Below are positions 2,346 through 61,584 of a stretch of DNA of 64,000 nucleotides, in pieces. The notes beneath the pieces are model-generated. The model did no database searches, had not been told where the DNA came from, and saw only the letters and a program-made list of their open reading frames with translations. The stretch's first letter is position 1. Every line of letters begins with the position of its first letter. This DNA is from an uncultured Gammaproteobacteria bacterium (GTDB taxonomy: Bacteria; Patescibacteriota; Microgenomatia; Levybacterales; UBA12049), in NCBI GenBank assembly GCA_964537895.1, contig CAZIDK010000001.1:134198-198197 (forward strand). The letters run 5' to 3'. The translations under genes were made by a program, and so were the position numbers.

Positions 2346-3476
2346 ATGTCCTTACCATCGGGCAAAAAATTGCTGTTACTTGGTTTTATAGCGGTTCTAC
2401 TCGTAGTTATCCCTTTAACTGTGTATCTTGTGCAGCAACAGCAAAAAACAAAAAGCGGAGCCGCTCCCGCAACCACTCTCGGTTTTAATCCCGCAAGTAA
2501 AACAATCGGTGTTAATGACACCGTAAATTTAGACGTGATGATGAATCCGGCAACCAATCAGGTTTCTTTTGTAAAATTAATTATTAACTATGACGCAACA
2601 AAACTTGCGACTGCCGCAGCCGGCGCTACTGTTTGTCCCACAAGACCCAATGACGCTCTTTGTCCAAACATTGCTGCGTTTCCATCTGTTTTACAGGGGC
2701 CAATCTATGGTCCGGGAACAATTTCGGTTACTCTTTCTATTGGCGGGAGCCCTCAAAACATAGTACAGACAGCGACAAGAATTGCCAGTCTTTCTTTCCA
2801 GGCTATCGCTTCCACGGATCCCGGAACAACACAAATAACTATCGACCAGCCCCAATCCCAAGTTCTTTCCATAGCCTCTACCGACCAGTTTAATGAAAAT
2901 GTTTTGTCTACTGTTAGTCCTGCAACAATCACCATAACGGCTGCCGTATCTTCCCCGACTCCCACGCCAACTCCCACGCCAGAGCCAACTGCCTCTCCCA
3001 CGCCAGAGCCAACTGCCTCTCCCACGCCAAACGCTCAAGCGCCGGTTTGCGAAAGCCTAACTTTAAGCGGAGCGGCAACCGGAACAGCGCCGTATTCGCT
3101 TACTTTCACTGCAACAGGCACTTCTTCGGCAAGCACAATCAGCAAGGTTACGTTTAACTTTGGTGACAGCGCGGTTTTGGATGAACCCCAGTCGGGAGGT
3201 CCAAGTTCCGTTAGTGTCCAGTCCTCGCATACTTATAATAGTGCCGGAACATTTGTTGCGTCTGCTTCCTTAACCGATGTTCTTGGAAACGTAAGCGATA
3301 CTGCAAACTGTACACAAACAATAACGGTAACTGCGGCACCAACTTCAACAGCTATAGCCCAGGCAACGCCAGCACCTCCTCTTCCGGTAGTCGGTCCTGA
3401 TGCCAAAATATTGGCAATAGGAGCAATAGGAACAATACTTTCTGTACTTGGAATACTACTTTTCTTTGCCCTTTAA
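2346..3476 (+). CDS. secreted or anchored surface protein: signal/TM, cohesin-like domain, PKD-like domain, Pro/Thr linker, C-terminal GPDxKI + hydrophobic tail
   Basis: The likely start is the internal Met (MSLPSGKKLLLLGFIAVLLVVIPLTVYL, hydrophobic). VNDTVNLDVMMNP...VSFVKLIINYDATKL resembles a cohesin fold. VTFNFGDS...HTYNSAGTFVASASLTD resembles a PKD domain. The linker is PTPTPTPEPTASPTPEPTASPTP. The C-terminus is VGPDAKILAIGAIGTILSVLGILLFFAL followed by a stop. Confidence 0.6.
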   Translation: MSLPSGKKLLLLGFIAVLLVVIPLTVYLVQQQQKTKSGAAPATTLGFNPASKTIGVNDTVNLDVMMNPATNQVSFVKLIINYDATKLATAAAGATVCPTRPNDALCPNIAAFPSVLQGPIYGPGTISVTLSIGGSPQNIVQTATRIASLSFQAIASTDPGTTQITIDQPQSQVLSIASTDQFNENVLSTVSPATITITAAVSSPTPTPTPTPEPTASPTPEPTASPTPNAQAPVCESLTLSGAATGTAPYSLTFTATGTSSASTISKVTFNFGDSAVLDEPQSGGPSSVSVQSSHTYNSAGTFVASASLTDVLGNVSDTANCTQTITVTAAPTSTAIAQATPAPPLPVVGPDAKILAIGAIGTILSVLGILLFFAL

Positions 3477-7344: not shown

Positions 7345-7902
7345 ATGCAAAAAAACTCTCCCTCAATAAATCTGTTAAAAAAACAGACGAGCTTAATTGA
7401 CAGACTTGTTAACTGGGCATTAACAGTAGGAAGACTGCTGGTTATATTAACGGAGATTGTTGCTTTATCGGCTTTTATATACCGTTTTTCTCTGGACAGA
7501 CAGTTGATAGATTTGCACTCTAAAATTACTCAGGAACAAGCAATTGTTAATTATTTAAAAGATAACGAACAAACATATCGTAATTTACAGGATAGATTAG
7601 CTGCTGCAGCAAATTACAGCACTTTGGGGGTAGACAGGTTTAAAATTTTTAGTGATATCGTGGGTTTTACTCCAAAAGGAATGGCTTTTAATAATCTTTC
7701 ATTATATGAAAATCGAATCAGAATAGACGCAAACGTTGATTCGGTTTCATCCCTTAGTATTTTTGTAAATTCTCTTAAAAATTATTCTGCCATCGATACG
7801 GTGAGCATAGACAAAATAGAAAATAAACCGTCAAGCGCAGTTATTACGATAAGCATCACCGCTATACTTAAACCTAATTTCACTTATGCAACTACAAACT
7901 AA
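7345..7902 (+). CDS. PilN-like type IV pilus assembly membrane protein (tentative)
   Basis: It has the N-terminal INLL motif (SINLLKKQ) followed by a single TM helix and a coiled-coil/periplasmic-type domain. This architecture resembles PilN. No pilM was seen adjacent. Confidence 0.35.
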   Translation: MQKNSPSINLLKKQTSLIDRLVNWALTVGRLLVILTEIVALSAFIYRFSLDRQLIDLHSKITQEQAIVNYLKDNEQTYRNLQDRLAAAANYSTLGVDRFKIFSDIVGFTPKGMAFNNLSLYENRIRIDANVDSVSSLSIFVNSLKNYSAIDTVSIDKIENKPSSAVITISITAILKPNFTYATTN

Positions 7903-8503
7903 TAGTTTATTTAAAAACTTACAGAAAAAGAAATACTTTGAGATGTTACCGGATTTCAAAGAAGAAAGAATGCAAAAGTTTACTACTTTAGTTTTTACCA
8001 TTATCGCATTATCGTTTTTTGGGCTTTTTGCAATTAACCCAACGCTTTCAACCATTGCCAACTTAAACAAACAATTATCGGATAGTAAATTTGTTGACCA
8101 AGAGCTTCAAAGCAAAATAAACAATTTGTATCTCCTTCAGGAAAAATATGGCCAACTTACACCGGACATACCTTACGTTTTAGATTCATTTCCTAAAAAT
8201 CCGCAGGTTCCTCTTTTAATTGCGCAGCTGCAATCGCTGGCGCAAAGTTCAAACGTTGCAATTACGGGTCTTCAGACTTTTGAAATCGAAATTCCTAACT
8301 CCTCCGTTAACACAAAAAAATATTACGCTTTTTCTTTTAGTATTTCGGCAAACGGTTCTTATGAAAGCATTTCAAAATTTATCGATTCAATGATTAAAAT
8401 GCAAAGAATTGTTTCTATAAATATTCTCTCTTTAAGCCGAAATAGCGGAGAAGGTCCGTCAACGCAATTAAATTTTAAAGGTACGGCATATTTTAAACAA
8501 TAA
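7886..8503 (+). CDS. PilO-like membrane protein (tentative); start uncertain (7886, 7943 or 7970)
   Basis: It has an N-terminal TM (TLVFTIIALSFFGLFAI), then a coiled-coil, then an alpha/beta domain. It is co-oriented with and overlaps the PilN-like gene. Confidence 0.3.
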   Translation: MQLQTNSLFKNLQKKKYFEMLPDFKEERMQKFTTLVFTIIALSFFGLFAINPTLSTIANLNKQLSDSKFVDQELQSKINNLYLLQEKYGQLTPDIPYVLDSFPKNPQVPLLIAQLQSLAQSSNVAITGLQTFEIEIPNSSVNTKKYYAFSFSISANGSYESISKFIDSMIKMQRIVSINILSLSRNSGEGPSTQLNFKGTAYFKQ

Positions 8504-8505
8504 GC

Positions 8506-8841
8506 ATGAAACAAAGAGACATTATTACATTACTGATACCATCATTCATCTTAATAGTAGCGTGGATTATTTTCAGTATTTATCATAGCTCTGTAACCTC
8601 GACTATACCGCCCGCTACAAACATCCAGATATCCCCGATAACGCCTGCCTTTGATATGGATGTGATATCTAAATTAAAACAAAGACAAAAAGTTACACCT
8701 CTTTATGAAGGGCAAGCTATTGCTTCCCCAACGCCAACGCCGGGGTTTCCAAATATTTTCTCGTCTTCTTTATCCGCTTCTCAAATAACCGGCTCTAGTA
8801 ATGCTCCTCAAGGCTCGCCGGGAGGAAGTCTGTTGCCATGA
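8506..8841 (+). CDS. small membrane protein with Pro-rich tail
   Basis: 111 aa with an N-terminal TM (IITLLIPSFILIVAWIIFSIY). It is translationally coupled to the next gene (ATGA overlap). Confidence 0.4.
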   Translation: MKQRDIITLLIPSFILIVAWIIFSIYHSSVTSTIPPATNIQISPITPAFDMDVISKLKQRQKVTPLYEGQAIASPTPTPGFPNIFSSSLSASQITGSSNAPQGSPGGSLLP

Positions 8842-10256
8842 AAAAAACAATTTGGGATAAACGTATACCAACACTTTTAGGAATGTTGCTTATAGTTGTT
8901 GGTATCGGTCTGACTTCTTTCTTAGTTGATAAGGGAGTAATTTTCATTGGACGCGCCAGTCCGGCAACAAATCCGCAAAACGTAAGAATAACCAACATTA
9001 CAGACAATTCATTTACTGTTTCTTATAATACGGATGCGCAAGTTATAGGCAGTTTAACTTATGGAAAAGATCAAAATTTAGGACAGACTGCCCTGGACGA
9101 CAGAGACCAGCAAACAGGCTCTTTGGCTAACCATAAGATTCACAGTATTACCGTAAGAAGCTTATCGCCTGTGACAAAATATTTTTTTTCGATTACCAGC
9201 GGGCAAGATAAATTTTCAAATAACGACACTCCATTCGAAGTGGTTACCGGAGCAAACGCAACTAGTCCTCCCTCGGAACAAAAACCGGTCGTTGGAAAAG
9301 TGGTTATGCCAAACGGCCAAGCCCCTGATGAGGCAATAATTTATATTACAACCGCCAACTCTCAAGTTATCTCTTCGCTTGTAAAATCCGGCGGAACCTA
9401 TTTGATTCCCCTGAATTCCGTGAGAAGTCAGGATTTGGCATCTTATTTGGATTTTTCAACCGTGAACACTCTTAAAATGCTTGTTTTTGGAGACGGATTG
9501 TCTTCAAACGTATCCTTATCTATAAACCAAATAAATCCTGTTCCAACCGTAACTCTTTCTCAAAATTATGATTTTGCAACAGGTACGGAACCTGTAGCAT
9601 CTTCATCGGCACAGCAAAATTCAGCCGAAAGTTTCCCGTCGCCAAAACCTAATGAAAATGTTTCAAGTAAGACCCCCCAGATACTAACTCCGCAGGCAAA
9701 TCAAAGTTTTTCCGATCAACAGCCTCTTTTTAAAGGCACTGGGAAGCCTAATGAAACTGTAAAAATAGAGATACACTCGGATGCGCAAATACAAACCGAG
9801 GTAAAAACCGATGCAAATGGAAATTGGAGCTACAGACCTAACGTCCCGCTTTCACCGGGACAGCATACGATTTCTATAACTACAAAAGATATAAACGGGA
9901 TATTAAGAACAATAACAGAAAATTTTACGGTTTATGCCGCAGGGAGTCAAGTTAACCCTGTTGCCAACCCTCCCACGGCCACCCCGACTCCCAGCCCGGC
10001 CCCATCCGCGACCCCTACACCAACTCCATCACCTACTCCTGCCGCAACGCCAACGTCTACTCCGGCGGCAACCGTTACGCCTACTCCAACTCCATCACCC
10101 ACTCCTACTCCAACCGTAGCGCCGACGGTAGCGCCCTCTAATCCCGGGCTTGCACCGGGAGGAAACTTACCGGGACCTGATGGGAAAATAATTACCTTAG
10201 GACTCCTCGGAGGAATACTTACCATTATCGGAGCCGTACTGCTATTTGCTTTATAA
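8838..10256 (+). CDS. surface protein: N-terminal TM/signal, fibronectin-III-like domain, beta-rich region, long Pro/Thr/Ala linker, C-terminal GPDxKI + hydrophobic tail
   Basis: The N-terminal TM is followed by NVRITNITDNSFTVSYNTD...HSITVRSLSPVTKYFFSI (FN3 / purple-acid-phosphatase-N-like). The 3' region encodes PTATPTPSPAPSATPTPTPSPTPAATPTSTPAATVTPTPTPSPTPTPTVAPTVAP. It ends PGPDGKIITLGLLGGILTIIGAVLLFAL followed by a stop. This tail is paralogous to the tail of the 2346..3476 protein. Confidence 0.6.
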   Translation: MKKTIWDKRIPTLLGMLLIVVGIGLTSFLVDKGVIFIGRASPATNPQNVRITNITDNSFTVSYNTDAQVIGSLTYGKDQNLGQTALDDRDQQTGSLANHKIHSITVRSLSPVTKYFFSITSGQDKFSNNDTPFEVVTGANATSPPSEQKPVVGKVVMPNGQAPDEAIIYITTANSQVISSLVKSGGTYLIPLNSVRSQDLASYLDFSTVNTLKMLVFGDGLSSNVSLSINQINPVPTVTLSQNYDFATGTEPVASSSAQQNSAESFPSPKPNENVSSKTPQILTPQANQSFSDQQPLFKGTGKPNETVKIEIHSDAQIQTEVKTDANGNWSYRPNVPLSPGQHTISITTKDINGILRTITENFTVYAAGSQVNPVANPPTATPTPSPAPSATPTPTPSPTPAATPTSTPAATVTPTPTPSPTPTPTVAPTVAPSNPGLAPGGNLPGPDGKIITLGLLGGILTIIGAVLLFAL

Positions 10257-10269
10257 TAAATACCGCTTT

Positions 10270-11448
10270 ATGAAAATAAATAAACTTCAGCCCTACCTTG
10301 TGTATTTTTTAATATTCGGAATTACTTTTATAATCTATTTTCTTACTTCCTCTGAAAATACTCCATATAACTATTTTGTTAGACTTGCCGATGCTTTTAT
10401 CAATCACAGGCTTTATCTTACAGAACACCCATCATGGCTAAGTGAATTAATTCCCATCGCGGGTAAGTATTACGTCGCTTATCCTCCAATGCCGGCAATA
10501 TTATTAATTCCGTTTGTTGCGATTTTTGGAACTGGGTTTTCACAAACTATTTTTTCAATATTCTTAGGTAGCCTTAACCCGATTATTTTATATAGTATTT
10601 TTAAAAAAATAAAAATATCTGAAAAAACAGCTTTGCTTACAACTATTTTTTTTGTATTCGGAACCAACTATTGGTTTTTATCAAGCGTAGGCTCTTCTTG
10701 GTATTTAGCCCACATTGTTGCTATTTTTTTTCTACTCTTAGCAATAAGAGAAACTTTTACAAAACAAAGGTTAATTATCATAGGTTTATTGTTGGGAGCA
10801 AGTTATTGGTCGCGGTCTGCAACAATTTTCGCTTTCCCCTTTTTTCTTTTATACTTGAACGACAAATTTCTACCAATAAACAAAAAATCTATTTATAATT
10901 TAATATCTTTTGGAATTTCTGTTGGTTTTTTTATTTTTTTGAACAGTCTTTATGGTTATCTTAGGTTTTCAAGTATTGATCCCGTTTCCCCTTATTGGAG
11001 CGCGCTTCAATCACAAAAATCATTAAATTTAAAAGACGGTGTTTTAAACATTATTCATATTCCTTCGCAACTTAGCGCAATGTTTTTAAGTCTCCCCCGT
11101 TTTCAAAAAGAATGGCCCTATATAATTCCTTCTCTTTATAGTCTTGCCATATGGTTTACTTCTCCCGCAATAATTTTTATTCTTAAAGCAAAAAAATCTC
11201 TGTTGACGATTTCACTGTGGGCTGCAATTATTCCAATCTTTTTTGTAATATCCTTATGGAAGTTTTCCGGATACAGCCAATTTGGATTTCGTTATGCCCA
11301 AGATTTTATGCCTTTTGCACTAATTTTGGTTGCTTTAGGTATCGGACAAAAACCAAAATTAATTACATATTTTTTGGTTTTCTTAAGTATAATTATTAAT
11401 TTTTGGGGAATAATTATGATTAACTTTTTGAATATTTGGATAATGTAA
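10270..11448 (+). CDS. GT-C fold membrane glycosyltransferase (ArnT/PMT_2-like)
   Basis: About 390 aa polytopic membrane protein. The first extracytoplasmic loop carries acidic and aromatic residues after TM1, as in ArnT/PMT_2. The ORF track starts at 10246, but the Met at 10270 avoids overlap with the upstream stop. Confidence 0.45.
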   Translation: MKINKLQPYLVYFLIFGITFIIYFLTSSENTPYNYFVRLADAFINHRLYLTEHPSWLSELIPIAGKYYVAYPPMPAILLIPFVAIFGTGFSQTIFSIFLGSLNPIILYSIFKKIKISEKTALLTTIFFVFGTNYWFLSSVGSSWYLAHIVAIFFLLLAIRETFTKQRLIIIGLLLGASYWSRSATIFAFPFFLLYLNDKFLPINKKSIYNLISFGISVGFFIFLNSLYGYLRFSSIDPVSPYWSALQSQKSLNLKDGVLNIIHIPSQLSAMFLSLPRFQKEWPYIIPSLYSLAIWFTSPAIIFILKAKKSLLTISLWAAIIPIFFVISLWKFSGYSQFGFRYAQDFMPFALILVALGIGQKPKLITYFLVFLSIIINFWGIIMINFLNIWIM

Positions 11449-11453
11449 CGAAG

Positions 11454-12797
11454 TTATTTCCAGCTGGAAAACCAAAAGTAAGAATCATACCAACTAACGC
11501 ATCCTTGAGGAATTACGCACTTAGGCATATGTATCGCCGTCCATAATGGGAAAAAATAAACAAATAAAATTAGCGACAGAGAAAGAAAAGTTATCACGAA
11601 TGCTTTACCGATTTTTTGAGACAAAAGCTTGTTGAGAACATATCCTGTTGCAATTGCCAAAAATGGAACTGCCGGCAGGTAATGGTAGTAGAACATAATT
11701 CTCGGAGAACCAACCCATGGCAAGAAAAAACCAAAGTAACCAATGAGAACTATGGCAATTGCCATTGTTCTTTTTCTGATGAATTCAAAAAGAAGAAAAA
11801 TAACCGATACTAATCCAAACCACATAAAAAGCGGGTTGCCCAAGTTATAAATACCGGCAATCGTATTGTCTTTATAATCTACATAAATCCAAACCGGCCT
11901 AAGATCAAAAGCCCATTGCGAAGGAGTCGACTGGTATGGATGAGTTGCTTTTAGACGCGTATGGTACCAATACATTTGCTGTTGCAGTCCAATAAAAGTT
12001 TCGACATTGAAAACTGAAGATTTGTTACCTGGCGGAGTATGTTTTCCTGTAAAAAATGGAAGATAAACAGCCAGATAAACAAGCAAAGGAATAATTAAAA
12101 AGAATAAAGGCGCTGCTATTAAATTTTTTAGAGCTTTTCTTTTGGAAATATCTTTTTTTCTAAGTTTTAAAACAAGCTGAATAATATATATTATGCCGAT
12201 TATTCCTATTCCAAAAAGTCCTGTCCATTTTGATGCGATAGAAAGTCCCAATGCTAAGCCCAGCAAAAGTTTTCTGTTATGCAAAAATAAGAAGAAAGCA
12301 AGCAAAATAAAAAAGAGAAAATACATATCGTTCATGGCAATACGCGACATGGTAAGAAGAAGTCCGTCTAAAGAAGCGGCAAAAGCCGCAAATAATGCAA
12401 TTAAACGGTTTTTAAAAAGCTTGTAGCTAATTAAATAAATTAAGACTATTACACCAAAACCGAAAAGGGCTGAAAAAAATCTCCAGGCAAACGGATTATC
12501 ACCAAAAACAGACATTGCAATTACCATGAATTCTTTGGCTAAAGGCGGATGCGTCCATTCATAAGCAAACCCTTTAGGAGGAGTGTTCCACCATTCCCAG
12601 GCGGCCGGATTACCTCTGAACATTTGTTGTGCGGTAAAAGCATGATAAACCTCATCGAATATGTGATTTTTTGGAATTCCCAAGCGGACAAACCTTGTTA
12701 AAAAGGCTAAAGTAAAAATTATAATTTCGGGAAGAAAAAATAATATTTTATTAATAATTTTTTCACTCTTTATTTTTGGTTTTTTATTTTTTTTCAT
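11454..12797 (-). CDS. dolichyl-phosphate-mannose protein O-mannosyltransferase family (GT39/PMT)
   Basis: 447 aa polytopic. The loop-1 DE motif is in the PMT context HIFDEVYHAFTAQQM, followed by a long hydrophobic core with RIAMND and YHY segments. Confidence 0.65.
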   Translation of the reverse strand: MKKNKKPKIKSEKIINKILFFLPEIIIFTLAFLTRFVRLGIPKNHIFDEVYHAFTAQQMFRGNPAAWEWWNTPPKGFAYEWTHPPLAKEFMVIAMSVFGDNPFAWRFFSALFGFGVIVLIYLISYKLFKNRLIALFAAFAASLDGLLLTMSRIAMNDMYFLFFILLAFFLFLHNRKLLLGLALGLSIASKWTGLFGIGIIGIIYIIQLVLKLRKKDISKRKALKNLIAAPLFFLIIPLLVYLAVYLPFFTGKHTPPGNKSSVFNVETFIGLQQQMYWYHTRLKATHPYQSTPSQWAFDLRPVWIYVDYKDNTIAGIYNLGNPLFMWFGLVSVIFLLFEFIRKRTMAIAIVLIGYFGFFLPWVGSPRIMFYYHYLPAVPFLAIATGYVLNKLLSQKIGKAFVITFLSLSLILFVYFFPLWTAIHMPKCVIPQGCVSWYDSYFWFSSWK

Positions 12798-14046
12798 AAA
12801 TTAATTTTTGATTTTTATAATAAACATGCAACATGATACCAAATATAATTAGCGAAAACACAGAAAAAAATACCTGATAATTTGAGGATATATCAAAAAT
12901 AATATTCTTCGGAGCCATTGGATTATTATAAATAACGTTATAGTAATAATAAGAATAAAACAGATTAATAAAATTAATAATAGCGAGGACAATATAGCTT
13001 ACAATAAGTGTTCTTGACCTAAAAACACACGCTGAAATAATAAGGAGCGAAAAGACCGGAAATAAGTGCCTTTCATGAATGCGGGTTAAAAATAAAAAAA
13101 AAGCAAATGATAAAATTGTATACAAAAGATAATCTAGTCTTATAAATGATTTTGATTTTTTTATTAATAAAGGAATAAAAATAATACAGAGTACAAATCC
13201 ATATAAAACATAACCCCACATATGATATGACAAATTAAGCCATAACGTCGCATCCGGCTTCCACCATCCAAAAAGTCCCCAAAAATTATAAGCGTTAATA
13301 GAGGTATAAGGATAAACATTCAAAGAGGTTGATAGGTGTTTAAATGGTCCAAAGAATGGGTCGCTTGGAAAAAATGGCATTGTGACAATAAAAAAAATTA
13401 ATAAAGATACTCCTGATGCTTTTAATATTTTTTGAGCGGAAAAATTTTTAATTATTCTATATAACATTAACGGAAAAAGAGCGACGTTCAAAGGTTTAAT
13501 TAAAAATGATAAAACGCTTGCAGAAAGCGATTTAACAATATTCTTTTTTTCTTCAAGCTGATATAAAGATAAAGTAAGAAGAAAAGTTGGTATTGCATCT
13601 ATTTGCCCCCATACTGAACTGTTAAAAATTACGCTTGGATTTAGCAAATATAAAATGCTCCCCAAATACGCCCATTTTTTAGAATGTTTATTTATAATTT
13701 TTAAAATTATAAATGCGGTTAAAATATCAAAAATATTACTTATAACTTTTATGTAAATTTCAAAACCAATTGAAAAAATAGCAGCGTTTCCAAAAATTAA
13801 TGCAAATATTTTTGCTAAAATAAAAAGGGAGAGATAGAAAAACGGAAAATAATCTGCAAAAATATTTGCTGAATAAAAATTAAACGGTCCAACTTCTACA
13901 AGTCTTGCCGCCCATGCTTGCCAGTCATTCATATCTATTTTAAAACTTGGTTGAGTAAATAAGAAAATACGTATAAATAAAATAGCCATTATGGAAAGAG
14001 TTGCCGGTAGGGGTATTTTTCTATATTCTCTTAAAAAATTTTCCAT
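12784..14046 (-). CDS. GT-C superfamily polytopic membrane glycosyltransferase, family uncertain
   Basis: 420 aa with at least 10 TM segments. It is adjacent to and co-oriented with the PMT-family gene. It has no soluble catalytic domain. Confidence 0.4.
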   Translation of the reverse strand: MENFLREYRKIPLPATLSIMAILFIRIFLFTQPSFKIDMNDWQAWAARLVEVGPFNFYSANIFADYFPFFYLSLFILAKIFALIFGNAAIFSIGFEIYIKVISNIFDILTAFIILKIINKHSKKWAYLGSILYLLNPSVIFNSSVWGQIDAIPTFLLTLSLYQLEEKKNIVKSLSASVLSFLIKPLNVALFPLMLYRIIKNFSAQKILKASGVSLLIFFIVTMPFFPSDPFFGPFKHLSTSLNVYPYTSINAYNFWGLFGWWKPDATLWLNLSYHMWGYVLYGFVLCIIFIPLLIKKSKSFIRLDYLLYTILSFAFFLFLTRIHERHLFPVFSLLIISACVFRSRTLIVSYIVLAIINFINLFYSYYYYNVIYNNPMAPKNIIFDISSNYQVFFSVFSLIIFGIMLHVYYKNQKLIYEKK

Positions 14047-14052
14047 TGTTAT

Positions 14053-15219
14053 TTAGCTTTGGGGTTTTATGGAAACAGAGCAATTGCCCGTTTTTACTTC
14101 ACAATATATGTATTTTTGTATTTCTGTAAAATTTCCATTTCCTAATCTTGGAATAAGTACCCATTCCAAATTATAATCACTTGTTATTGGAGGATTTATA
14201 AGAAGTCCCGGCCTTTGAGCTTTTTCATCTCCCGTATCTATTACTGCGCTGTTTATTCTTACCTGATTCATTTTCTGGGCAAGTCTTACAAAATCGTCAA
14301 ACTCATCTTGTTTTATATCTGTATCTATACTGCCTTTTAAAACGCTATATAGACTCAGAATTTTTGCGGGGTTTATAAGCGTTTGTGCGGATAAAACTTT
14401 GTCTTTAAAAGCTTTTATTACTTTTTCCTGTCTTTTGCTTCTTGCAAAATCACTTCCCTCATTACCCTCCGAACTCCTTGATCTTACAAATTCAAGAGCT
14501 GTTTCTCCGTCCATGCGCTGTAATCCTTTATCAAAACGTAAATATTTATACCGGCAGGGCAATTCTTGGGGCAACAATTCAGCAGATACAGTAGCTAAGC
14601 TTTGAAGTTCTTCCGGGGTTTTATTGCAGGAATCGTTTTCCTTACCGCTAATTGGATATTGATAATCAACAAAAGAGTTATCAACCATAACGTCCAAACC
14701 TCCGACAATATTAACTGCCTTAACAAAACCCGAAAAATCAATCCTTAATCCGTAATCAACATCCCAACCTGTAACTTTTTCTACTATTTTTTTTGATAAA
14801 AGCAATCCTCCGCCTTTTCTTTTTAACTCTCCGACTGCGTATGCACTGTTAATTCTTTTATCATCTCCTTCTAAGTCAGGCATCCATAAATCTCTTGGAA
14901 TTGATATAAGAGTCATTTTATTATTTTTAAGATCAAGGCTTGCAAGGATAATTGTATCTGTTAAATTCGGGCCGTCATGACTTCCGCCTCCGATACCCAA
15001 AAGAAGAATGTTAATCCTATTGTTGGTTTCTTTTAATGCAACTCCTTTATCAAAAAACAAATGGAATAAAAATGGATACAAATTGGCTGTTTTTACAATA
15101 ATAAATACTGCTAAAATAACCACAAAAATTCCTACGATAATTAAGGGTTTTTTATTATGCATTTTGAATAATTTTGATAAACTCTTCCGCCTCAAGACTT
15201 GCTCCTCCAACCAAAACAC
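14053..15219 (-). CDS. LytR-CpsA-Psr (LCP) family cell-envelope phosphotransferase
   Basis: An N-terminal TM is followed by INILLLGIGGGSHDGPNLTDTIILASLD...LISIPRDLW...GGGLLL...GLRIDFSGFVKAVNIVGGLDV, which is the LCP core. The start may be the internal Met at 15162. Confidence 0.8.
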   Translation of the reverse strand: MFWLEEQVLRRKSLSKLFKMHNKKPLIIVGIFVVILAVFIIVKTANLYPFLFHLFFDKGVALKETNNRINILLLGIGGGSHDGPNLTDTIILASLDLKNNKMTLISIPRDLWMPDLEGDDKRINSAYAVGELKRKGGGLLLSKKIVEKVTGWDVDYGLRIDFSGFVKAVNIVGGLDVMVDNSFVDYQYPISGKENDSCNKTPEELQSLATVSAELLPQELPCRYKYLRFDKGLQRMDGETALEFVRSRSSEGNEGSDFARSKRQEKVIKAFKDKVLSAQTLINPAKILSLYSVLKGSIDTDIKQDEFDDFVRLAQKMNQVRINSAVIDTGDEKAQRPGLLINPPITSDYNLEWVLIPRLGNGNFTEIQKYIYCEVKTGNCSVSIKPQS

Positions 15220-15820
15220 CGGTTAAATCTGTTTTCCCCGTAAAGCTCTTAACATTATCGAAAGTTACACTTCCTCCATAAAGAACTTGATAATTATTTT
15301 TTTCTTTTATTAGAAAGGCCGTCTTATCGGCGTTTTCCGGGGTATCGGGAACGCTACTGCCGATTGCAAATACTGGTTCGTATGCGACTATTTCAACTCC
15401 TTGAGGAATTAAATTATCATTACTTGAAACCAGAAAAATCGGCTTAAGTCCGTATCTAAGAGAAAGCTCAACTTTTTTTGAAAGTATGTCATCTGTTTCG
15501 TTAAAATTATTTCTTCTTTCTGAATGTCCAATCAAAACATACTCCGCAAAATCTTTTATTTGTTTTGCATTTACCTCTCCCGTATAAGCTCCTTCGTCAA
15601 AAGCCGAAACATTTTGTGCTCCAATTTTTACAGACAAACTGTTATCGAAAACATATGAGCTAAATATAGAAAGCAGGGTAAGGGAAGGACAAATAACTAT
15701 TTCCTTATTATCAAAATTTTGTCCCAATTCTCTTATTTTTTTGAAGTTTTCTAACCATTCCTTAGCTTCGATTTGAGTCTTATAGGACTTTAAGTTGGCA
15801 ACTATCAAAAGCTTATTCAT
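15155..15820 (-). CDS. tpiA: triosephosphate isomerase
   Basis: ANLK (the N-terminal catalytic Lys region), IGHSERR, EPVFAIGS and YGGSV motifs are present. Confidence 0.9.
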   Translation of the reverse strand: MNKLLIVANLKSYKTQIEAKEWLENFKKIRELGQNFDNKEIVICPSLTLLSIFSSYVFDNSLSVKIGAQNVSAFDEGAYTGEVNAKQIKDFAEYVLIGHSERRNNFNETDDILSKKVELSLRYGLKPIFLVSSNDNLIPQGVEIVAYEPVFAIGSSVPDTPENADKTAFLIKEKNNYQVLYGGSVTFDNVKSFTGKTDLTGVLVGGASLEAEEFIKIIQNA

Positions 15821-19229: not shown

Positions 19230-19517
19230 CTAAAAAATATAAATTACTTTTCCAAGAATATCATTTTTTGATACAAAACCAAAATTCTTACTGTCTAAGC
19301 TGTCGTTTAAATTATCTCCTGCTAAAAAATACTTATTTCCGGTTTTTCTTATAATTCTTTTTATCAAAATTTTCTTATTTTTTTTAAATGCAGCTATTTC
19401 TTTAACACTAGGTTCTGAAAACAAATAAGGAATTTTACTAACTAAAACGTGTTGTTCATTTTTAATTGCGGGTTCCATGCTGTGACCAGAAATTTTAAAC
19501 CAGGATAAAAGAAGCAT
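19230..19517 (-). CDS. sodX: nickel-SOD maturation protease SodX (S26 signal-peptidase-like)
   Basis: 95 aa. GHSMEP (Ser nucleophile box) and KRIIRK (catalytic Lys box) are present. It lies immediately downstream of sodN and overlaps it by 1 nt. Confidence 0.7.
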   Translation of the reverse strand: MLLLSWFKISGHSMEPAIKNEQHVLVSKIPYLFSEPSVKEIAAFKKNKKILIKRIIRKTGNKYFLAGDNLNDSLDSKNFGFVSKNDILGKVIYIF

Positions 19518-20053
19518 TATTTATGAAGTACAATTTCTCCGCCTGTTGGATAAACCGTTTTAACTCTTACCGGCTCTACCCCTTTTGTTTTGTAGAAAAT
19601 CTCTGCTATTTGCAGTACTTCTTCCAATAATTCTTTTGCCGCAGCCATATCAATATTTTGTCTGGCTTTTGCCCCAAGTTTGTTTGCATTTGAGAAATGT
19701 TCTCCTAACTTAGGATGCTCTTTATAGTGTTCTTCTCTGAAATAGTCATTCTCAAGAGTAGTTAGTTCTTCTTCCAAAAGACTTGAATGATCTTCTTTAA
19801 CATATGTAATTCTTGCAATATCATGCTCCGGTTTTGTTTCAGCTTGTCCTGAGTTTGCTTGTGGTGAGCTTGCCGAATCCGTCGAAGGATTATCCCTTTT
19901 AACCTCTGTTAAGAGTTGGGTCATGCGAATAATTGTATGCGCTGCAACTTGTGCGTTATGGGGATCATATATTCCGCAGGGAATATCACAATGAGCATAG
20001 GCTATTTTTCCTATTAACAACTTTTCCAAAAGAAAACGGAGAACTGTTTTCAT
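19517..20053 (-). CDS. sodN: nickel-containing superoxide dismutase precursor
   Basis: A pro-peptide is followed by the Ni-hook HCDIPCGIYDP (HCDxPCGxYDP). Cleavage before His would expose His1. It carries an internal acidic/Ser-rich insertion compared with about 130-aa NiSODs. Confidence 0.8.
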   Translation of the reverse strand: MKTVLRFLLEKLLIGKIAYAHCDIPCGIYDPHNAQVAAHTIIRMTQLLTEVKRDNPSTDSASSPQANSGQAETKPEHDIARITYVKEDHSSLLEEELTTLENDYFREEHYKEHPKLGEHFSNANKLGAKARQNIDMAAAKELLEEVLQIAEIFYKTKGVEPVRVKTVYPTGGEIVLHK

Positions 20054-45859: not shown

Positions 45860-47161
45860 TTAAACCTCTATTAGTTTATAGCCTCTTGTTTTTATTGTTT
45901 GTATTTCGTAGTTATTGTCCTGGTTTTTTAATTTATTCCGCACCCTTGCAATAAGCTTATCTATCGCCCAATCCGATACACCCAACTCTTCTTCCTCCGG
46001 CCAAATTATTTCGATAATCTGTTCCCTTTCGCAAATCTTATCTTTATTTTCCAAAAGAAAGTTAAACAATAAATTTTCTTTTTTACTGAATTCATTATTT
46101 GCATCTTTCGAGCTTATATTTGTTTCTTTTTGTCTGACAAAATCCGCAAAAAGTTTACTGAAAACATAATTATTTGCGCCTATTGTTTTTATAAACCCGG
46201 TATTCCAAAGATATATTGATTTTCTTTTTTCTTCCGTCAAAATTTTCTCACTATTTGCTATTTTTAACAGTATTTTTTGGGCATTTTTGTCCAAACTTTC
46301 CCAGAGCTCTTCCGACTGAAGGTTAATTCTTTCATCTTTACTAAGGCCTAGGTAAAGTTTTTCTTTTGTTCTTATCGCTTCTTTTTTTTCGTGAAGAAAA
46401 ATAAGCGCCAGCTGAAGATATTGCGTATAACCATCAACCAATTCAAATAAATAATCTTCGAGATATTCAGAAAGAGGAACTCCAAAACGTTTTTTATAAC
46501 TTGTGAATATTGTTTTTACATCTTCTGTTTTTGCAGGGCTAATATAAATGTTTTTAAAAAATACCGTCCAAGAAGTCTTTGGAAAAGCCGAAGGCATAAG
46601 TTTTTTTAAAGGCTGGTAGCTGGTAAAAACAAAAGCAACTTGCTGGTTAGTTGACTTAATCCCTTCTAAATTTGCGAAAAACTCCGGAGTTACCGCGTCT
46701 TTCATTCGGTCAAACCTGACAAAAAAAATGGTTGGTAAATATCCTTGTTCCGTAATCTTTAGAAGCGAAAGACGAACGCTGTCTATTGTAAAAAATAAAT
46801 CCTGAAGCTGAATGCTTTCTAAAAATAAATTTCCGATTTGCTCTTTAATTTTTTCGTCAATTGGGTACTCCTCTACCGAATCTACAATTCTTTTTAAAGT
46901 TAGTGTCCAGAATGGTGCGATTTCGCACTCAACTAAATCATTAAGCTCTATGGGAATGAATAAATGTCTCCTGTAATCCTTTATGTAGGTTCCCGGGATG
47001 TCTTTATTGTTTAAAAAAAAGCGGAGGAAATTACTTATTCCCACCTTTTTCATTCCTATCAAAACAACTGCGTGTCTGTTTTTCAAGTGCTTGCCGAGTT
47101 CTTCCGACTCGTCTTGCCTAAAAGTTAAAGGATAATTTTCTTCTATTATGTTATGCGTCAT
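45860..47161 (-). CDS. regulator-like protein: N-terminal ATPase-like domain (degenerate P-loop) fused to C-terminal OmpR/PhoB-type winged-helix DNA-binding domain
   Basis: The C-terminus ...EREQIIEIIWPEEEELGVSDWAIDKLIARVRNKLKNQDNNYEIQTIKTRGYKLIEV matches trans_reg_C (W...D......R...D..I..LR.KL.......I.TVRG.GY.L). The N-terminus HAVVLIGMKKVGISNF is P-loop-like but lacks the Lys. Confidence 0.5.
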   Translation of the reverse strand: MTHNIIEENYPLTFRQDESEELGKHLKNRHAVVLIGMKKVGISNFLRFFLNNKDIPGTYIKDYRRHLFIPIELNDLVECEIAPFWTLTLKRIVDSVEEYPIDEKIKEQIGNLFLESIQLQDLFFTIDSVRLSLLKITEQGYLPTIFFVRFDRMKDAVTPEFFANLEGIKSTNQQVAFVFTSYQPLKKLMPSAFPKTSWTVFFKNIYISPAKTEDVKTIFTSYKKRFGVPLSEYLEDYLFELVDGYTQYLQLALIFLHEKKEAIRTKEKLYLGLSKDERINLQSEELWESLDKNAQKILLKIANSEKILTEEKRKSIYLWNTGFIKTIGANNYVFSKLFADFVRQKETNISSKDANNEFSKKENLLFNFLLENKDKICEREQIIEIIWPEEEELGVSDWAIDKLIARVRNKLKNQDNNYEIQTIKTRGYKLIEV

Positions 47162-47549
47162 ATTCGTGCCTCTATTGTAATTGCCGAAGGATTATTTAGC
47201 AATAAGGCTGGATGTCAGGTTAATGTCAGACAAAAATCCCCTAACCGTCAAGCCGGGTAAAGATTAGTCATTTATTATGTTGTTATGGCATTAGCTGAAA
47301 GTCCAAGCAACACAGGATACTATCGTGAAATAAGAACCATGGAGGCACGTCAAAGACTTCGAAGTTCGCTACGAAGACCAGAAGGAACTTCAAGTTCTCC
47401 GTTGAGAGTAATCCGACTAGGCAGAGTATCTGTTGATGTCAGTGGACCAACAGATACGCTTTTACCCGAAGGGCAAGATGTGGTCATATCCCGGAGAACC
47501 GTAAGATAAGTTTCCGCCGCATAATCCCTCTTGAAGCAAATAGGAAAAG
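47162..47549. ncRNA. GC-rich non-coding segment, probable structured RNA of unknown identity; strand undetermined
   Basis: It is markedly more GC-rich than the flanking sequence. The only ORF (47285..47509) encodes an implausible Ser/Arg-rich peptide. It contains GCUGAAAGUCCAAGCAACACAGG, which resembles the RNase P P4/CR-I block GAGGAAAGUCC...AGG. Terminal complementarity ggattat (47189-95) with ataatcc (47521-27) encloses about 330 nt. Confidence 0.35.
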
Positions 47550-50228
47550 CTATTTTTTAGCTAAATTTATTAAAATATTCCTGTCGCTGTTTAGGCTTCC
47601 CGAATAAACTACTCTTCCGTTATCATCTGCTCCGTCACTTGCAGAAACAACTCTAAACCCGCTCGGATATGTAAGCGAAAAATCATAAGGATACTCCTCT
47701 GTTCCGGGCTGTTTGAAAATACGCAAATCATAATTTAAAACAGGTGAGGAAACTAAAACCCGGTCGTTAAGCGAGTAATCAAAAGTTATTGTTTGCAGAG
47801 CGTTAACGGGAACGTTTGTTAAGAAACCGTAGATTGTTTTTCCATTCTGATCACGTTTTTCAATTTCCAGCTTTTTGGGCGGAGAAAAATTTTTATTTTC
47901 GTAAATCTGGGGATTAGTAATCGCATCAACTGTACTTTGAGCTTGTCCGTTTATTTTTACACCTGTTAGCTGTGCTCCTTGCGGCAATATAAACCTCAAA
48001 TAATTTTTATAAATTCCTCCGGGCCAAATACCATTTACGTTTGTATTTTTATAAGCAACGGTAATGCTTGCGGAAACACTACCGTTATCATCAATATTAA
48101 CAACTTGGGAAACGCTTCTTTTGATAAAATAATTCGCTTTATTAATGCCTAGATTTGCTTCGCTAATACCAAAAAAATCATTAATAAGGTTTTTCTCTTG
48201 TTTTCTATCATCCCACAGGGATGAAGACCAGCCGTTAACGGTGAAAAGGTTTTGGATACTTGAATTATCAAATGCAAAAAGAACGTGTTTTTGCGAAATA
48301 GAGTCCCCAACTGCCTGAGCCAGAGAAAGATAAGAAATATTCTTATTGGTTGCTATGTTATTTTCCATTGCCTGCAACAAAAGTCGTAAAAAATCTTTCT
48401 TTTGCGTAGACCCCGGGAAAAAGTTTTTTTCCGCGTGAGACTGTGTAAGCGCAAAAAGGTTGCCGGAGTTTACGTATTCATTGTACTCCGGAACATAAAC
48501 CTGGCCCATTGCGGAAAGAATATTTTTAACAAAAGAAACGTCAACCCCAATAACTCCGTTAACCGTCTGTTTTTTTGTTAAGCTAAGGAAACGCGCTGCC
48601 GCGGCCGCATCATTAATATAGTCAACGTCAAAATTACTGTCTCTCATATATAGGTTAACGGACGCAAGATGGCGCCTTATGGCAAATGGCGGCTCCACAT
48701 GCCCCCTTAACTGTCCGTCCGCATCATAAACGTCATATATCTTAAAAGCCGAAACCTTACCGTTTTTAACGGTAAGAATTCCGTATGAACCTATAAATCC
48801 CCCTCCGGGCCTTAACTCCATATTGTTTTGAAATAAAACTAAGTAAGTTTTCTCATTATTAAAACCAAGTAAATCCGGCCAAACATCTACGGTATTGGAA
48901 ATAAAATTAATTAAAGGGTCAATTTTTTGCGTAATGTCGGAAAAATTCTGTCCCTGCGCTTTTTCTTTTTCAAAAATCACAATGGCGTTTTTCAAATAAT
49001 TAGACGCATCAATAAAATTGCTCACAGATTTAACATCGCTGGAAAAAGCCAGGGTTAAGGATTTTGACGCATTCAAAAGATAAGTTCCGGCCGTTGAAAC
49101 ATTCTTTCCGGTTTCTATATCGCCGGCCAATTTGTTAAGGAGATCTTGTTTCCCAAAAACCTGGCTTTCGGCAGATAATATGACCCACGCATTTTGAGCG
49201 AGAGAAAAAGAATTTTTAGCAAAATACACGGATTTTTCGGCGGCTATAAAGTCTCCTTTATCAAGCGACGCTTTTGCGTTTTTAAGCGATTCAAGTCCCA
49301 AGAACGAAAACCCCAAGGTTGTGATGAGCGGTAAGGACAAAAAAAACACGATGCAAAAAATTAACCAGAAAAATGGCAGAGCTATGCTGTTTCGCTCTTT
49401 ATATGGATTACTAGTTATAACGATGGATTTTAAAGGCTGTTTTTCTTTAATGCCTACGTTTTTTATTTTATCTTCTAATGCATAGTTCTCGCCTAAAAGA
49501 TAAACGCCTTCCGTTGAAAAAACATAATTTTTTTGCTGGGGGTTTTTTTCTTTAACAAAATCGATATGAAGCGCCGGATTTGCTTTTTGCAGCATATGGG
49601 CAAGAGAGATTAACGTTACTCCGTGTTTTGGAAATAAATAGAAAAGGTTTTTGTTTTCTCCATCTCCAAAAACGGCTTCGAAAATCCCCGTAACGACATC
49701 TTCTAGAAATACGGGGTAAGTTACGCTTGTACCGTCTCCTGGTACATCGATTTTGTTGTAATTTTGCGCTTGATAAATAAATTTATTAACAGCAAATTTT
49801 GTATCGTAAATAATATCCTTACAAAAAATATCGCCGAAAACAGCTATTTTTGCTTTTTGGTAAACATTTGGAATTTCTGCTACAAACGGCTCGTTTATTC
49901 GCAAAATATGGGTAGCAAATAAGAATACCGCTCTATCGTATTGAGCTTTTTTTATAAAACTTGGTAAAGAATCTTTCGTGGCACTTGTTTGATCATCAAC
50001 AACAAAAATGTGTGAATATGTATTGTCCGGAACCGTTGGATTTTTTTTAAAAAACGGGATGTGAACAACATTTTCCGGCGAGGATGGTTTTTTTTGACTG
50101 ACAAAAATAATCAAGGACTCATCTTTAAGCTGTTCTAAAAGCGCGTCTCCTATTATCCCTATCCTGTCAACAATAAGTATGGGGTTTCCATCCTTTTTTT
50201 CGGATGTTACAAAGGCAGATCTTTTCAC
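47550..50228 (-). CDS. DUF4012-domain membrane protein with N-terminal Rossmann-like domain
   Basis: 892 aa. The N-terminus ILIVDRIGIIGDALLEQL is a GxxGxxG Rossmann-like motif. A central TM region (LPFFWLIFCIVFFLSLPLITTLGFSFLG) follows. The C-terminal segment contains ELRPGGGFIGSYG, characteristic of DUF4012. Confidence 0.55.
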   Translation of the reverse strand: MKRSAFVTSEKKDGNPILIVDRIGIIGDALLEQLKDESLIIFVSQKKPSSPENVVHIPFFKKNPTVPDNTYSHIFVVDDQTSATKDSLPSFIKKAQYDRAVFLFATHILRINEPFVAEIPNVYQKAKIAVFGDIFCKDIIYDTKFAVNKFIYQAQNYNKIDVPGDGTSVTYPVFLEDVVTGIFEAVFGDGENKNLFYLFPKHGVTLISLAHMLQKANPALHIDFVKEKNPQQKNYVFSTEGVYLLGENYALEDKIKNVGIKEKQPLKSIVITSNPYKERNSIALPFFWLIFCIVFFLSLPLITTLGFSFLGLESLKNAKASLDKGDFIAAEKSVYFAKNSFSLAQNAWVILSAESQVFGKQDLLNKLAGDIETGKNVSTAGTYLLNASKSLTLAFSSDVKSVSNFIDASNYLKNAIVIFEKEKAQGQNFSDITQKIDPLINFISNTVDVWPDLLGFNNEKTYLVLFQNNMELRPGGGFIGSYGILTVKNGKVSAFKIYDVYDADGQLRGHVEPPFAIRRHLASVNLYMRDSNFDVDYINDAAAAARFLSLTKKQTVNGVIGVDVSFVKNILSAMGQVYVPEYNEYVNSGNLFALTQSHAEKNFFPGSTQKKDFLRLLLQAMENNIATNKNISYLSLAQAVGDSISQKHVLFAFDNSSIQNLFTVNGWSSSLWDDRKQEKNLINDFFGISEANLGINKANYFIKRSVSQVVNIDDNGSVSASITVAYKNTNVNGIWPGGIYKNYLRFILPQGAQLTGVKINGQAQSTVDAITNPQIYENKNFSPPKKLEIEKRDQNGKTIYGFLTNVPVNALQTITFDYSLNDRVLVSSPVLNYDLRIFKQPGTEEYPYDFSLTYPSGFRVVSASDGADDNGRVVYSGSLNSDRNILINLAKK

Positions 50229-50247
50229 AAGAACTATTGTAGAAGCT

Positions 50248-50670: not shown

Positions 50671-50755
50671 TTTCGTGTGTCTTTTCCAAAAATTTTAACA
50701 GAATACCGCTTAAAAGCCAATAAGGCAAAAACGAGTTCTTCCGAAATTCCGGTAA

Positions 50756-61051: not shown

Positions 61052-61168
61052 AAATAATTATTAATTTTCAATTTCTAATTTCTATTGGATTTTCAAGCTT
61101 CCAATCTTTGATTGCATCATTTTCATATCAAAAATAAAATTTTAAATATAAAATACACATAGCAAAAA

Positions 61169-61540: not shown

Positions 61541-61584
61541 ATTTGATATGTATTTTTAATATTTTATATTTAATCTTTTAAATG

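Follow-up and report, generated by a model that had tools for sequence, protein, structure and literature searches.

Protein O-mannosylation is usually described for eukaryotes and Actinobacteria, and a literature search for an O-mannosyltransferase in Patescibacteria returned no match. Here we describe three neighboring genes for glycosyltransferases of the GT-C fold, one of them a homolog of the GT39-type protein O-mannosyltransferases (PMTs), in an uncultured Levybacterales bacterium of the candidate phyla radiation (CPR). The genes, which we call PMT, GTC3, and GTC1, lie in a 64,000-nucleotide stretch of contig CAZIDK010000001.1 (assembly GCA_964537895.1, positions 134,198 to 198,197, forward strand). 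We refer to this whole stretch, which has a low GC content of ~36%, as the window. GTC1, GTC3, and PMT form a module that is conserved across phyla.

Several described systems resemble this locus. A July 2026 preprint reports that Pmt from Mycobacterium smegmatis pulls down a GT87-like protein (Rv0051/MSMEG_6899), a beta-propeller protein, and a DivIVA-like protein. The same preprint interprets the GT87-like subunit as a non-catalytic analog of yeast Pmt2 and describes GT87::GT39 fusions in Paenibacillus (bioRxiv 10.64898/2026.07.15.738315). The GT87 enzyme PimE can extend the first O-mannose in mycobacteria, and the M. tuberculosis PMT (MtPMT) favors proline-rich Ser/Thr sites (PMC12331936). 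In streptococci, the GtrB-PgtC2 and Pgf systems combine a GT2 enzyme with GT-C enzymes to glycosylate Ser/Thr-rich disordered regions, including those of LPXTG adhesins encoded inside the pgf cluster (10.1101/2024.05.05.592596). The LytR-CpsA-Psr (LCP) enzyme LcpA of Actinomyces oris glycosylates the sortase substrate GspA (PMC6381275).

The window locus shares several features with the actinobacterial system. Like actinobacterial Pmt (Rv1002c/MSMEG_5447/Cg1014), the window PMT is a GT39 protein that lacks a MIR domain and carries an Asp-Glu (DE) motif. The pairing of a GT39 enzyme with a GT-C_B or GT87-like protein appears as overlapping genes in the window, as co-purification in M. smegmatis, and as gene fusion both in Paenibacillus and in the loci identified here. 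Actinobacterial substrates are proline-rich Ser/Thr segments of exported proteins, and substrates of the same kind may be used here. The two systems also differ. GTC3 keeps an invariant Asp in its first outer loop, whereas catalytic residues are reportedly missing from the mycobacterial partner. The module here includes a third GT-C protein, GTC1, for which no mycobacterial equivalent has been described. It is also carried by the reduced genome of a CPR bacterium. In addition to the GT87-like Rv0051 and the elongating enzyme PimE, mycobacteria have the accessory subunits Rv3212 (beta-propeller) and Rv1209 (DivIVA-like). A general Pfam scan of the open reading frames (ORFs) near the cluster, which included no search aimed at the Rv3212 or Rv1209 sequences, found no beta-propeller or DivIVA-like domains.

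The remaining systems are more distant in different ways. The catalytic core of the yeast Pmt1-Pmt2 complex (6P25) is homologous to the window PMT, with the DE motif and the C-terminal four-transmembrane domain aligned, and both arrangements follow the idea of two GT-C units. The yeast proteins, however, carry MIR domains, pair with a second GT39 protein, and are ~800 aa long, whereas the window PMT has no MIR domain, a GT-C_B partner, and 447 aa. The streptococcal Pgf (PgfS/PgfM1/PgfM2/PgfE) and GtrB-PgtC2 systems share only their logic with this locus: a GT2 enzyme makes a polyprenyl-phosphate-sugar, and a GT-C enzyme transfers the sugar outside the membrane to Ser/Thr-rich segments. Their GT-C enzymes belong to the YfhO family and use Glc or GalNAc, whereas Pfam found no YfhO match in GTC1, GTC3, or PMT, and the window holds no GT2 or epimerase gene. 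As in A. oris, an LCP gene lies near genes for LPXTG-type proteins, but here this adjacency occurs only in Levybacteria-like genomes. Finally, the acceptors of PimE, ALG3, ALG6, and GPI-MT-I are glycolipids, whereas the genetic links of GTC3 are to a protein O-glycosyltransferase.

The three genes of the module are as follows.

11454-12797, minus strand: PMT, GT39-type protein O-mannosyltransferase homolog, 447 aa (PF02366, PF16192, yeast Pmt1 alignment)
12784-14046, minus strand: GTC3, predicted GT-C_B class glycosyltransferase, 420 aa, named "Gpi18-like mannosyltransferase" by JGI (structure prediction)
10270-11448, plus strand: GTC1, predicted GT-C fold glycosyltransferase of a large unannotated family, 392 aa (structure prediction)

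The stop of GTC3 overlaps the start of PMT by 14 nt, and GTC1 converges on PMT with a gap of 5 nt. The longest ORF for GTC1 begins at a TTG codon at 10246 and overlaps the stop of the preceding gene (PT2, described below), but independent gene calls and a 100%-identical database protein start at the ATG at 10270, where the region marked in the first-pass annotation also begins. Contigs from NCBI and Logan hold proteins identical to the window GTC3 and GTC1, and the PMT gene retrieves syntenic contigs from Levybacteria metagenome-assembled genomes at 71-88% protein identity.

The first-pass annotation of this DNA had read the product of 11454-12797 as a GT39/PMT enzyme with the motif HIFDEVYHA, and profile matches and the alignment to yeast Pmt1 bear this out. 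The outcome that would have refuted this reading, a failure to match PMT/GT39 profiles, did not occur: the scores lie well over threshold. PMT matched PF02366 at 90.8 bits (gathering cut-off 22.7) over profile positions 2-239 of 245. It also matched PF16192 (PMT_4TMC), the PMT-specific C-terminal domain of four transmembrane (TM) segments, at 75.6 bits (cut-off 32.4). PMT aligned to yeast Pmt1 (6p25_A) in two stretches (E 1.8e-13), with PMT residues 265-436 covering Pmt1 534-727. The DE motif, D48-E49 in HIFDEVYHA (12642-12659), falls in the alignment where FDEVYH pairs with FDEVHF of Pmt1. The Asp of NDMYF pairs with a Pmt1 Asp, and RIMFYYHYLP pairs with RQMFLHHYLP. In 18 homologs with 46-87% identity to PMT, D48, E49, the NDMYF Asp, and the RIMF Arg never vary, and the DE motif also occurs in the fused forms described below. 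Further conserved motifs are HPYQSTPSQW (11913-11942) and SPRIMFYYHYLP (11673-11708). Through the yeast Pmt1 alignment, we infer a positional match to residues D74, D176, R441, and Y444 of MtPMT. Pfam found no MIR domain in PMT, and a length of 447 aa leaves no room for one. MIR domains occur only in eukaryotic PMTs, and actinobacterial Pmt also lacks them. We conclude that a genuine GT39-type enzyme is present in Levybacteria and in many other Microgenomates.

The first-pass annotation had also proposed two further polytopic GT-C glycosyltransferases and had suggested assigning all three proteins with profile models. Profiles were sufficient for PMT, which also scored 37 bits against PF13231, over the curated cut-off. 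They gave a weak PF02366 match for GTC1 (28.4 bits) and no GT87 match for GTC3. Because phmmer and profile searches against the PDB returned nothing useful for GTC3 or GTC1, fold prediction was needed to identify them. The structure model of GTC3 (pLDDT 91.8) matched the folds of ALG6, ALG3, GPI-MT-I, and PimE at sequence identities of 9-16%. Its candidate catalytic residue is D38 in SFKIDMNDW (13921-13947), which lies at the start of the first outer-loop helix in the pattern F-x-x-D-[VIM]. No substitution of D38 occurs among 34 CPR homologs or among 19 fused ORFs of two further phyla. GTC3 is thus predicted to have the GT-C_B fold, its first outer loop holds a conserved acidic residue, and because this Asp is retained, GTC3 is probably enzymatically active. 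The GT87 profile PF09594 was found in only a few GTC3 homologs. The fused ORF of locus L008 scores 27.3 bits against it (cut-off 25).

GTC1 scored 51.5 bits against the Leptospira LA_3751/3752 family, which is under the cut-off of 200. Its AlphaFold2 model (pLDDT 90.4) matched ALG12, ArnT, PglB, and Pmt1/2/4 in Foldseek, and hhalign related GTC1 to the PMT profile with a probability of 70%. A full HMMER scan with the GTC1 profile recovered at least 2628 clusters (50% identity) at E<=1e-10. The best fold matches of both GTC3 and GTC1 are enzymes that depend on dolichyl-phosphate-mannose (Dol-P-Man) or dolichyl-phosphate-glucose (Dol-P-Glc). The models thus place GTC1 and GTC3 beside PMT as GT-C fold enzymes, in agreement with the first-pass annotation, and two large families of membrane proteins annotated as "hypothetical" thereby gain a likely role.

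We compared the arrangement of the three genes among homologous loci (numbered L001 onward). All three GT-C genes are adjacent in the Levybacteria-like loci L001-L005, L027, and L030, with GTC1 at times relocated or inverted. A GTC3-like domain and a complete PMT share one stop-free frame in all 17 of the Chloroflexota and Eremiobacterota (Vulcanimicrobiota) loci for which upstream DNA was available, giving 21 such ORFs. One ORF in the Chloroflexota (L008:7649-11221) holds GT87, PMT, and PMT_4TMC domains by Pfam. In the 763-aa protein P0110, GTC3 is likewise fused to PMT (hhalign probability 100%), and the PMT part shares 47% identity with its counterpart in the window. A GTC1 ortholog lies directly upstream of the GTC3::PMT fusion in the Chloroflexota loci L007-L009. 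The 2012-aa metagenomic protein P0417 fuses all three modules in an ORF that we confirmed on its contig (L031:2631-8669). Residues 32-491 of P0417 match the GTC3 profile (hhalign 99.5%), residues 608-1398 form a PMT with a DE motif, and residues 1608-2004 form a GTC1-like C-terminal module. Gene fusion is a classical sign of proteins that act together. Because the trio recurs in other phyla, where it is partly or fully fused, the three neighboring GT-C genes in the window are not a chance arrangement. These cross-phylum fusions, which the first-pass annotation missed, are the strongest evidence for the module.

The GT39 enzyme is therefore one part of a three-GT-C module. The GTC3-PMT pair and its fusions fit and broaden the picture of a Pmt working with a GT87-like partner, and they independently support and extend that proposal for bacterial Pmt. 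Three elements are new here: the cross-phylum trio, LPXTG-like stalk proteins of which one is encoded in a pilN-pilO operon, and the lineage-limited adjacency of LCP and Pro/Thr-rich proteins, which we describe below.

Some fused loci show additional features. The fused PMT domains carry a large insertion after the DE-motif loop, of ~280 aa in Chloroflexota (L007-L010) and ~320 aa in P0417 (residues 676-994). The insertion has no Pfam match. It might serve as an internal domain for acceptor recognition, comparable to MIR domains or to the beta-propeller protein that partners mycobacterial Pmt. In five Eremiobacterota (Vulcanimicrobiota) loci (L011, L013, L019, L022, and L024), two GTC3::PMT fusion genes lie in tandem, ~5.7 kb apart. 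Both GTC3 domains of L013 match the window GTC3 equally (26.7% over 359 aa), and this identical match suggests that the L013 genes were recently duplicated.

The module is expanded in one Curtissbacteria-like locus (L028:3058-10352), in which PMT is 45% identical to the window protein. This locus encodes GTC1, a PIG-V-like protein (PF04188), two GTC3 paralogs that are 32-34% identical to the window GTC3, PMT, and a GT2 enzyme. The expanded cluster suggests a longer or branched glycan in that lineage.

The feature is the convergence point of two gene strings. The plus strand carries, in order, rpsT, pilN, pilO, X111, PT2, and GTC1, and the minus strand carries tpiA, the LCP gene, GTC3, and PMT as a co-directional, closely spaced string. 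The best promoter-like site of the region (15879-15850) lies just upstream of tpiA and reads TTGAGA-18-TATAAT, which is a match to the consensus at 11 of 12 positions and nothing beyond a consensus match. A scan of the window for tRNA genes found none. The genes around the module are listed below.

2346-3476, plus strand: PT1, surface protein of ~376 aa (PKD domain, linker, tail)
7345-7902, plus strand: pilN (PF05137 PilN at 20.5 bits, just under the cut-off; synteny)
7886-8503, plus strand: pilO (PF04350 PilO at 58.5 bits; synteny)
8506-8841, plus strand: X111, 111 aa, one TM helix at the N-terminus and a C-terminal half rich in Ser, Thr, and Pro (sequence and hydropathy)
8838-10256, plus strand: PT2, 472-aa surface protein, fourth gene of the pilN-pilO-X-PT2 string (domains, linker, tail)
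14053-15162, minus strand: LCP phosphotransferase, 369 aa from the likely ATG, with an N-terminal TM helix (PF03816, TIGR00350)
15155-15820, minus strand: tpiA, triosephosphate isomerase, first gene of the minus-strand string (PF00121 TIM on an identical contig)

For two of these genes the longest ORF is probably not the coding sequence. PT1 more likely starts at ~2346 than at the GTG at 2250, and the LCP gene more likely starts at 15162 (an independent gene call, 369 aa) than at the GTG at 15219.

Two secreted proteins with Pro/Thr-rich linkers had been noted near the cluster, and both linkers were confirmed. PT1 has an N-terminal TM segment or signal, a PKD domain (PF00801, 24.7 bits), and a linker at 2934-3035 of 34 residues, of which 13 are Ser/Thr and 11 are Pro, including SSPTPTPTPTPEPTASPTPEPTASPTP. 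PT2 has an N-terminal TM segment or signal, an FN3-like domain, a Big_13 domain (41.9 bits in Pfam), and fn3 and Pur_ac_phosph_N matches under the cut-off. Its linker at 9957-10139 spans 61 residues, with 24 Ser/Thr and 22 Pro. X111, which sits between pilO and PT2, includes …IASPTPTPGFPNIFSSSLSASQITGSSNAPQGSPGG… in its Ser/Thr/Pro-rich half and has no family match in Pfam, NCBIfam, or sorting-signal models. PT1, PT2, and X111 are all encoded within 8 kb of the module.

The C-termini of PT1 and PT2 are related to each other. The PT1 tail (...PLPVVGPDAKILAIGAIGTILSVLGILLFFAL, 3369-3473) and the PT2 tail (...NLPGPDGKIITLGLLGGILTIIGAVLLFAL, 10149-10253) share the sequence [P/V]GPD[AG]K and then a hydrophobic helix whose last residues are LLFAL. 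The window tails (PLPVVGPDAK... and NLPGPDGK...), lacking basic residues at the end, matched neither the LPXTG model TIGR01167 nor other known models of C-terminal sorting signals. The tail of the L027 ortholog (LPATGEND...) passes this model at 23.5 bits (cut-off 15.9), and a second L027 tail reads LPAAGPGDK.... Orthologs in L004 and L005 end in LPPTGPDGK and a TM segment, and L029 has LPEAG.... The variants range from canonical LPATG or LPPTG through to PPPGNSS.... Because ortholog tails are near-canonical LPXTG, the PT1 and PT2 tails look like LPXTG-derived sorting signals, and in build the two proteins resemble wall-anchored adhesins of Gram-positive bacteria, with a stalk. No sortase gene was found in the 64 kb window, in which Pfam searches covered most ORFs of at least 160 aa. 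The suggestion of an S-layer-like envelope made in the first-pass annotation does not hold for PT1 and PT2: Pfam and NCBIfam found no S-layer or SLH domains in them, and they show PKD, FN3-like, and Big_13 domains and LPXTG-like tails instead. Possibly, the C-terminal signal shared at 3369-3473 and 10149-10253 represents a form of the sortase sorting signal that is particular to CPR bacteria.

PT2 belongs to a conserved gene string. The four genes pilN-pilO-X111-PT2 directly follow rpsT, without pilM (7345-10256; also L001, L003-L005, L027, L029, and L030). PT2 orthologs keep their operon position in L001-L005, L027, and L029, and X111 keeps its position in L001, L003-L005, L027, and L029. In these bacteria, which lack an outer membrane, PT2 may span the wall as an accessory of the type IV pilus machinery. 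The module adjoins Pro/Thr-rich proteins in L001-L005, L027, and L029, and the PT2-PMT neighborhood is retained down to 46% PMT identity.

We propose that PMT, GTC3, and GTC1 make up an extracytoplasmic protein O-glycosylation unit that uses a polyprenyl-phosphate-hexose donor, with PT1, PT2, and X111 as local substrates. We hold this proposal with moderate confidence. It starts from the family and fold assignments, the conserved residues, the gene order, and the fusions; complex formation, the sugar, the donor, the substrates, and the biological effect are its inferred parts. PMT, with D48-E49 in its first outer loop, would transfer the first hexose from polyprenyl-phosphate-hexose to Ser/Thr in unfolded proline-rich segments of exported proteins. 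By family precedent, this hexose would be mannose. GTC3 would be the physical partner of PMT, the counterpart of the mycobacterial GT87-like subunit and of yeast Pmt2. It would probably also add a further sugar, as PimE does in mycobacteria, a role we propose because the candidate catalytic Asp is retained. GTC1 would act as a third module, either catalytic or scaffolding. The fusions among GTC3, PMT, and GTC1 argue for joint function. A candidate donor synthase, the GT2 enzyme of L028, flanks the module in that relative and also speaks for the proposal. Among the proteins encoded nearby, PT1 and PT2 with their Pro/Thr stalks and X111 with its Ser/Thr/Pro tail are the likely substrates, and glycosylation would stiffen the PT1 and PT2 stalks and shield them from proteases. 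For CPR biology, the proposal points to glycosylated wall-anchored stalk proteins, one of them encoded in a pilus assembly operon, as envelope components of cell-attached organisms.

Several observations weigh against this proposal. PMT scored only 117.9 bits against the NCBIfam Pmt equivalog model NF058602, far under the cut-off of 800. PMT is therefore best regarded, from its sequence, as a member of the family or superfamily and not as a demonstrated equivalog of the characterized bacterial Pmt, and its score does not establish functional equivalence to actinobacterial Pmt. A protein O-glycosylating role for PMT in CPR bacteria is likewise suggested by sequence comparison. The window GTC3 has no Pfam GT87 (PF09594) match over threshold. 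Assigning an elongating activity to GTC3 would exceed precedent, since the mycobacterial partner was reported without catalytic residues. Within the scope of the Pfam searches given above, the window contains no GT2 donor synthase (Ppm1/GtrB-type) and no gene for the GDP-mannose pathway or for other sugar nucleotides. The GT2 enzyme beside the module in L028 has the streptococcal polyprenyl-phosphate glycosyltransferase PgfS as its best NCBIfam match (282 bits). This enzyme resembles the GtrB/PgfS/ArnC type and not Ppm1, so the sugar may not be mannose. The remaining points concern the Pro/Thr-rich neighbors. A Pro/Thr-rich segment is the normal wall-spanning stalk of sortase-type proteins, whether glycosylated or not. 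Adjacency of Pro/Thr-rich proteins is absent in L006, L028, and all Chloroflexota and Eremiobacterota loci; in these two phyla, the only Pro/Thr-rich matches near the module were spurious off-frame ORFs of high-GC DNA. The adjacency in Levybacteria may be inherited synteny, because the order of the surrounding genes (murJ, rpsT, uvrD, femAB) is conserved in general.

The last of these points lead to the strongest alternative, in which the module is real and its Pro/Thr-rich neighbors are coincidental. PT1 and PT2 would then be ordinary stalks, PT2 would belong to a type IV pilus operon, and the true substrates would be encoded elsewhere in the genome. The order murJ-rpsT-pilN-pilO-X-PT2 ... 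uvrD-femAB is syntenic across Levybacteria-like genomes, so adjacency weighs little, and the module occurs in other lineages without such neighbors. The LPXTG-like tails of PT1 and PT2 also suit ordinary stalks. By our own rough estimate, the chance that two Pro/Thr-rich proteins would fall no more than 8 kb from the cluster, given a window of 64 kb, is ~0.1, which is only weakly unlikely. Against coincidence, GTC1 starts 13 nt past the PT2 stop on the same strand. In L027 and L029, PMT directly adjoins the PT2-type operon even with GTC1 relocated or absent. LPXTG adhesin substrates are encoded within the streptococcal pgf cluster (10.1101/2024.05.05.592596), and MtPMT favors just such Pro-rich Ser/Thr sequence (PMC12331936). 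The earlier claim that these linkers are PMT substrates agrees with this sequence preference; the adjacency, which is not kept in L006, L028, or the other phyla, may stem from inheritance of gene order. We consider a coincidental neighborhood possible but doubtful, and linking the module to the neighboring Pro/Thr-rich proteins a reasonable inference.

A second alternative involves the LCP gene. The presence of an LCP-family phosphotransferase, noted in the first-pass annotation, was borne out by PF03816 (108.7 bits, cut-off 24.6) and TIGR00350 (92.1 bits, cut-off 62.3). Mycobacterial arabinogalactan, lipomannan, and lipoarabinomannan are assembled by GT-C enzymes before Lcp1 acts, and this offers a model for the window locus. 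In this model, the GT-C enzymes build a non-protein envelope glycan, such as a mannan-like wall polysaccharide or lipoglycan, on a polyprenyl carrier at the outer side of the membrane, and the co-transcribed LCP ligates it to peptidoglycan. The acceptor of the PMT-like enzyme would be a carbohydrate or lipid. The LCP gene does lie 6 nt upstream of GTC3 on the same strand, in the apparent tpiA-lcp-GTC3-PMT string. The five GT-C-type genes and the GT2 gene of L028 exceed the needs of a single O-hexose, the closest folds of GTC3 (ALG3, ALG6, GPI-MT-I, and PimE) all use glycolipid acceptors, and the low score of PMT against the Pmt equivalog model would also fit.

Comparison among loci decides against a core role for LCP. 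Only L001-L005, L027, and L030, which are Levybacteria-like, have the LCP gene next to the GT-C genes, along with tpiA, uvrD, and femAB. The LCP gene is absent beside the module in L028, L029, and all Chloroflexota and Eremiobacterota loci, and it is not a conserved partner. We therefore rejected LCP as a core member and, with it, the earlier placement of LCP in the glycosylation unit. It would be a Levybacteria-specific neighbor, perhaps an operon mate, and most simply a peptidoglycan-glycopolymer ligase. Other evidence also disfavors a wall glycan. PMT retains the PMT-specific C-terminal four-TM domain and the acceptor-side motifs of yeast Pmt1, and Pfam found no priming phosphoglycosyltransferase, flippase, or polymerase in the cluster. 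The pairing of a GT87-like protein with a GT39 enzyme is documented for protein mannosylation (bioRxiv 10.64898/2026.07.15.738315). We regard a wall glycan as an unlikely product of these enzymes.

It is very improbable that LCP itself glycosylates the LPXTG-like proteins with a GT-C-built polyprenyl-diphosphate glycan, as LcpA does with GspA in A. oris: an LCP enzyme has been shown to glycosylate a sortase-anchored protein there (PMC6381275) and the LCP, GT-C, and LPXTG-like genes are neighbors here, but the LCP association is lineage-restricted, the cluster has no gene for a polyprenyl-diphosphate-linked glycan pathway, and PMT-type enzymes transfer directly from a monophosphate donor with no need for LCP.

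The protein O-glycosylation proposal can be taken further. PMT, GTC3, and GTC1 might form an obligate three-module GT-C machine, encoded by separate genes in CPR bacteria, with two modules fused in Chloroflexota and Eremiobacterota and three in some uncultured bacteria. O-glycosylation of this kind would then be ancient and far more widespread than "Actinobacteria plus eukaryotes," its GT-C_B partner would be catalytically active, and its third component would come from a GT-C family so far without annotation. In Levybacteria, the machine would glycosylate sortase-type stalks, including the component encoded in the pilN-pilO operon. We offer this broader version tentatively and think it less probable than the proposal it extends. 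If true, it would connect glycosylation with the pili through which CPR cells contact their hosts.

Other regions of the window also encode candidate envelope and secretion functions. A second group of genes that looks related to envelope glycans occupies 45860-52204 on the minus strand. It encodes a protein with a Wzy_C/O-antigen-ligase domain (50756-52204), a DUF4012 protein of 892 aa (47550-50228), and a protein of 433 aa that ends in an OmpR-type DNA-binding domain (45860-47161). The PglL/PilO O-oligosaccharyltransferases are among the Wzy_C proteins. Positions 58440-62805 hold a cluster resembling those for type IV secretion or conjugation. Its VirB4/TraG-type ATPase is apparently split (60380-61051 and 58440-60383), and a PrgI-family protein with a CarboxypepD_reg domain is encoded at 61585-62805. 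Two proteins encoded at 56784-58385 adjoin this cluster and have no family match; one has a Ser/Thr/Pro-rich segment. The genes yidC (52546-53373), dnaA (54195-55547), and dnaN (55674-56783) lie together, and because they cluster, the region of the replication origin probably falls within the window.

Positions 19517-20053, downstream of femAB, carry a gene for a nickel superoxide dismutase (Sod_Ni, 105 bits). In L027, a small ORF comes after the Sod_Ni gene (L027:1-552); it matches Peptidase_S26 faintly and may encode the SodN maturation protease. Oxygen defense of this kind is of note for a CPR genome.

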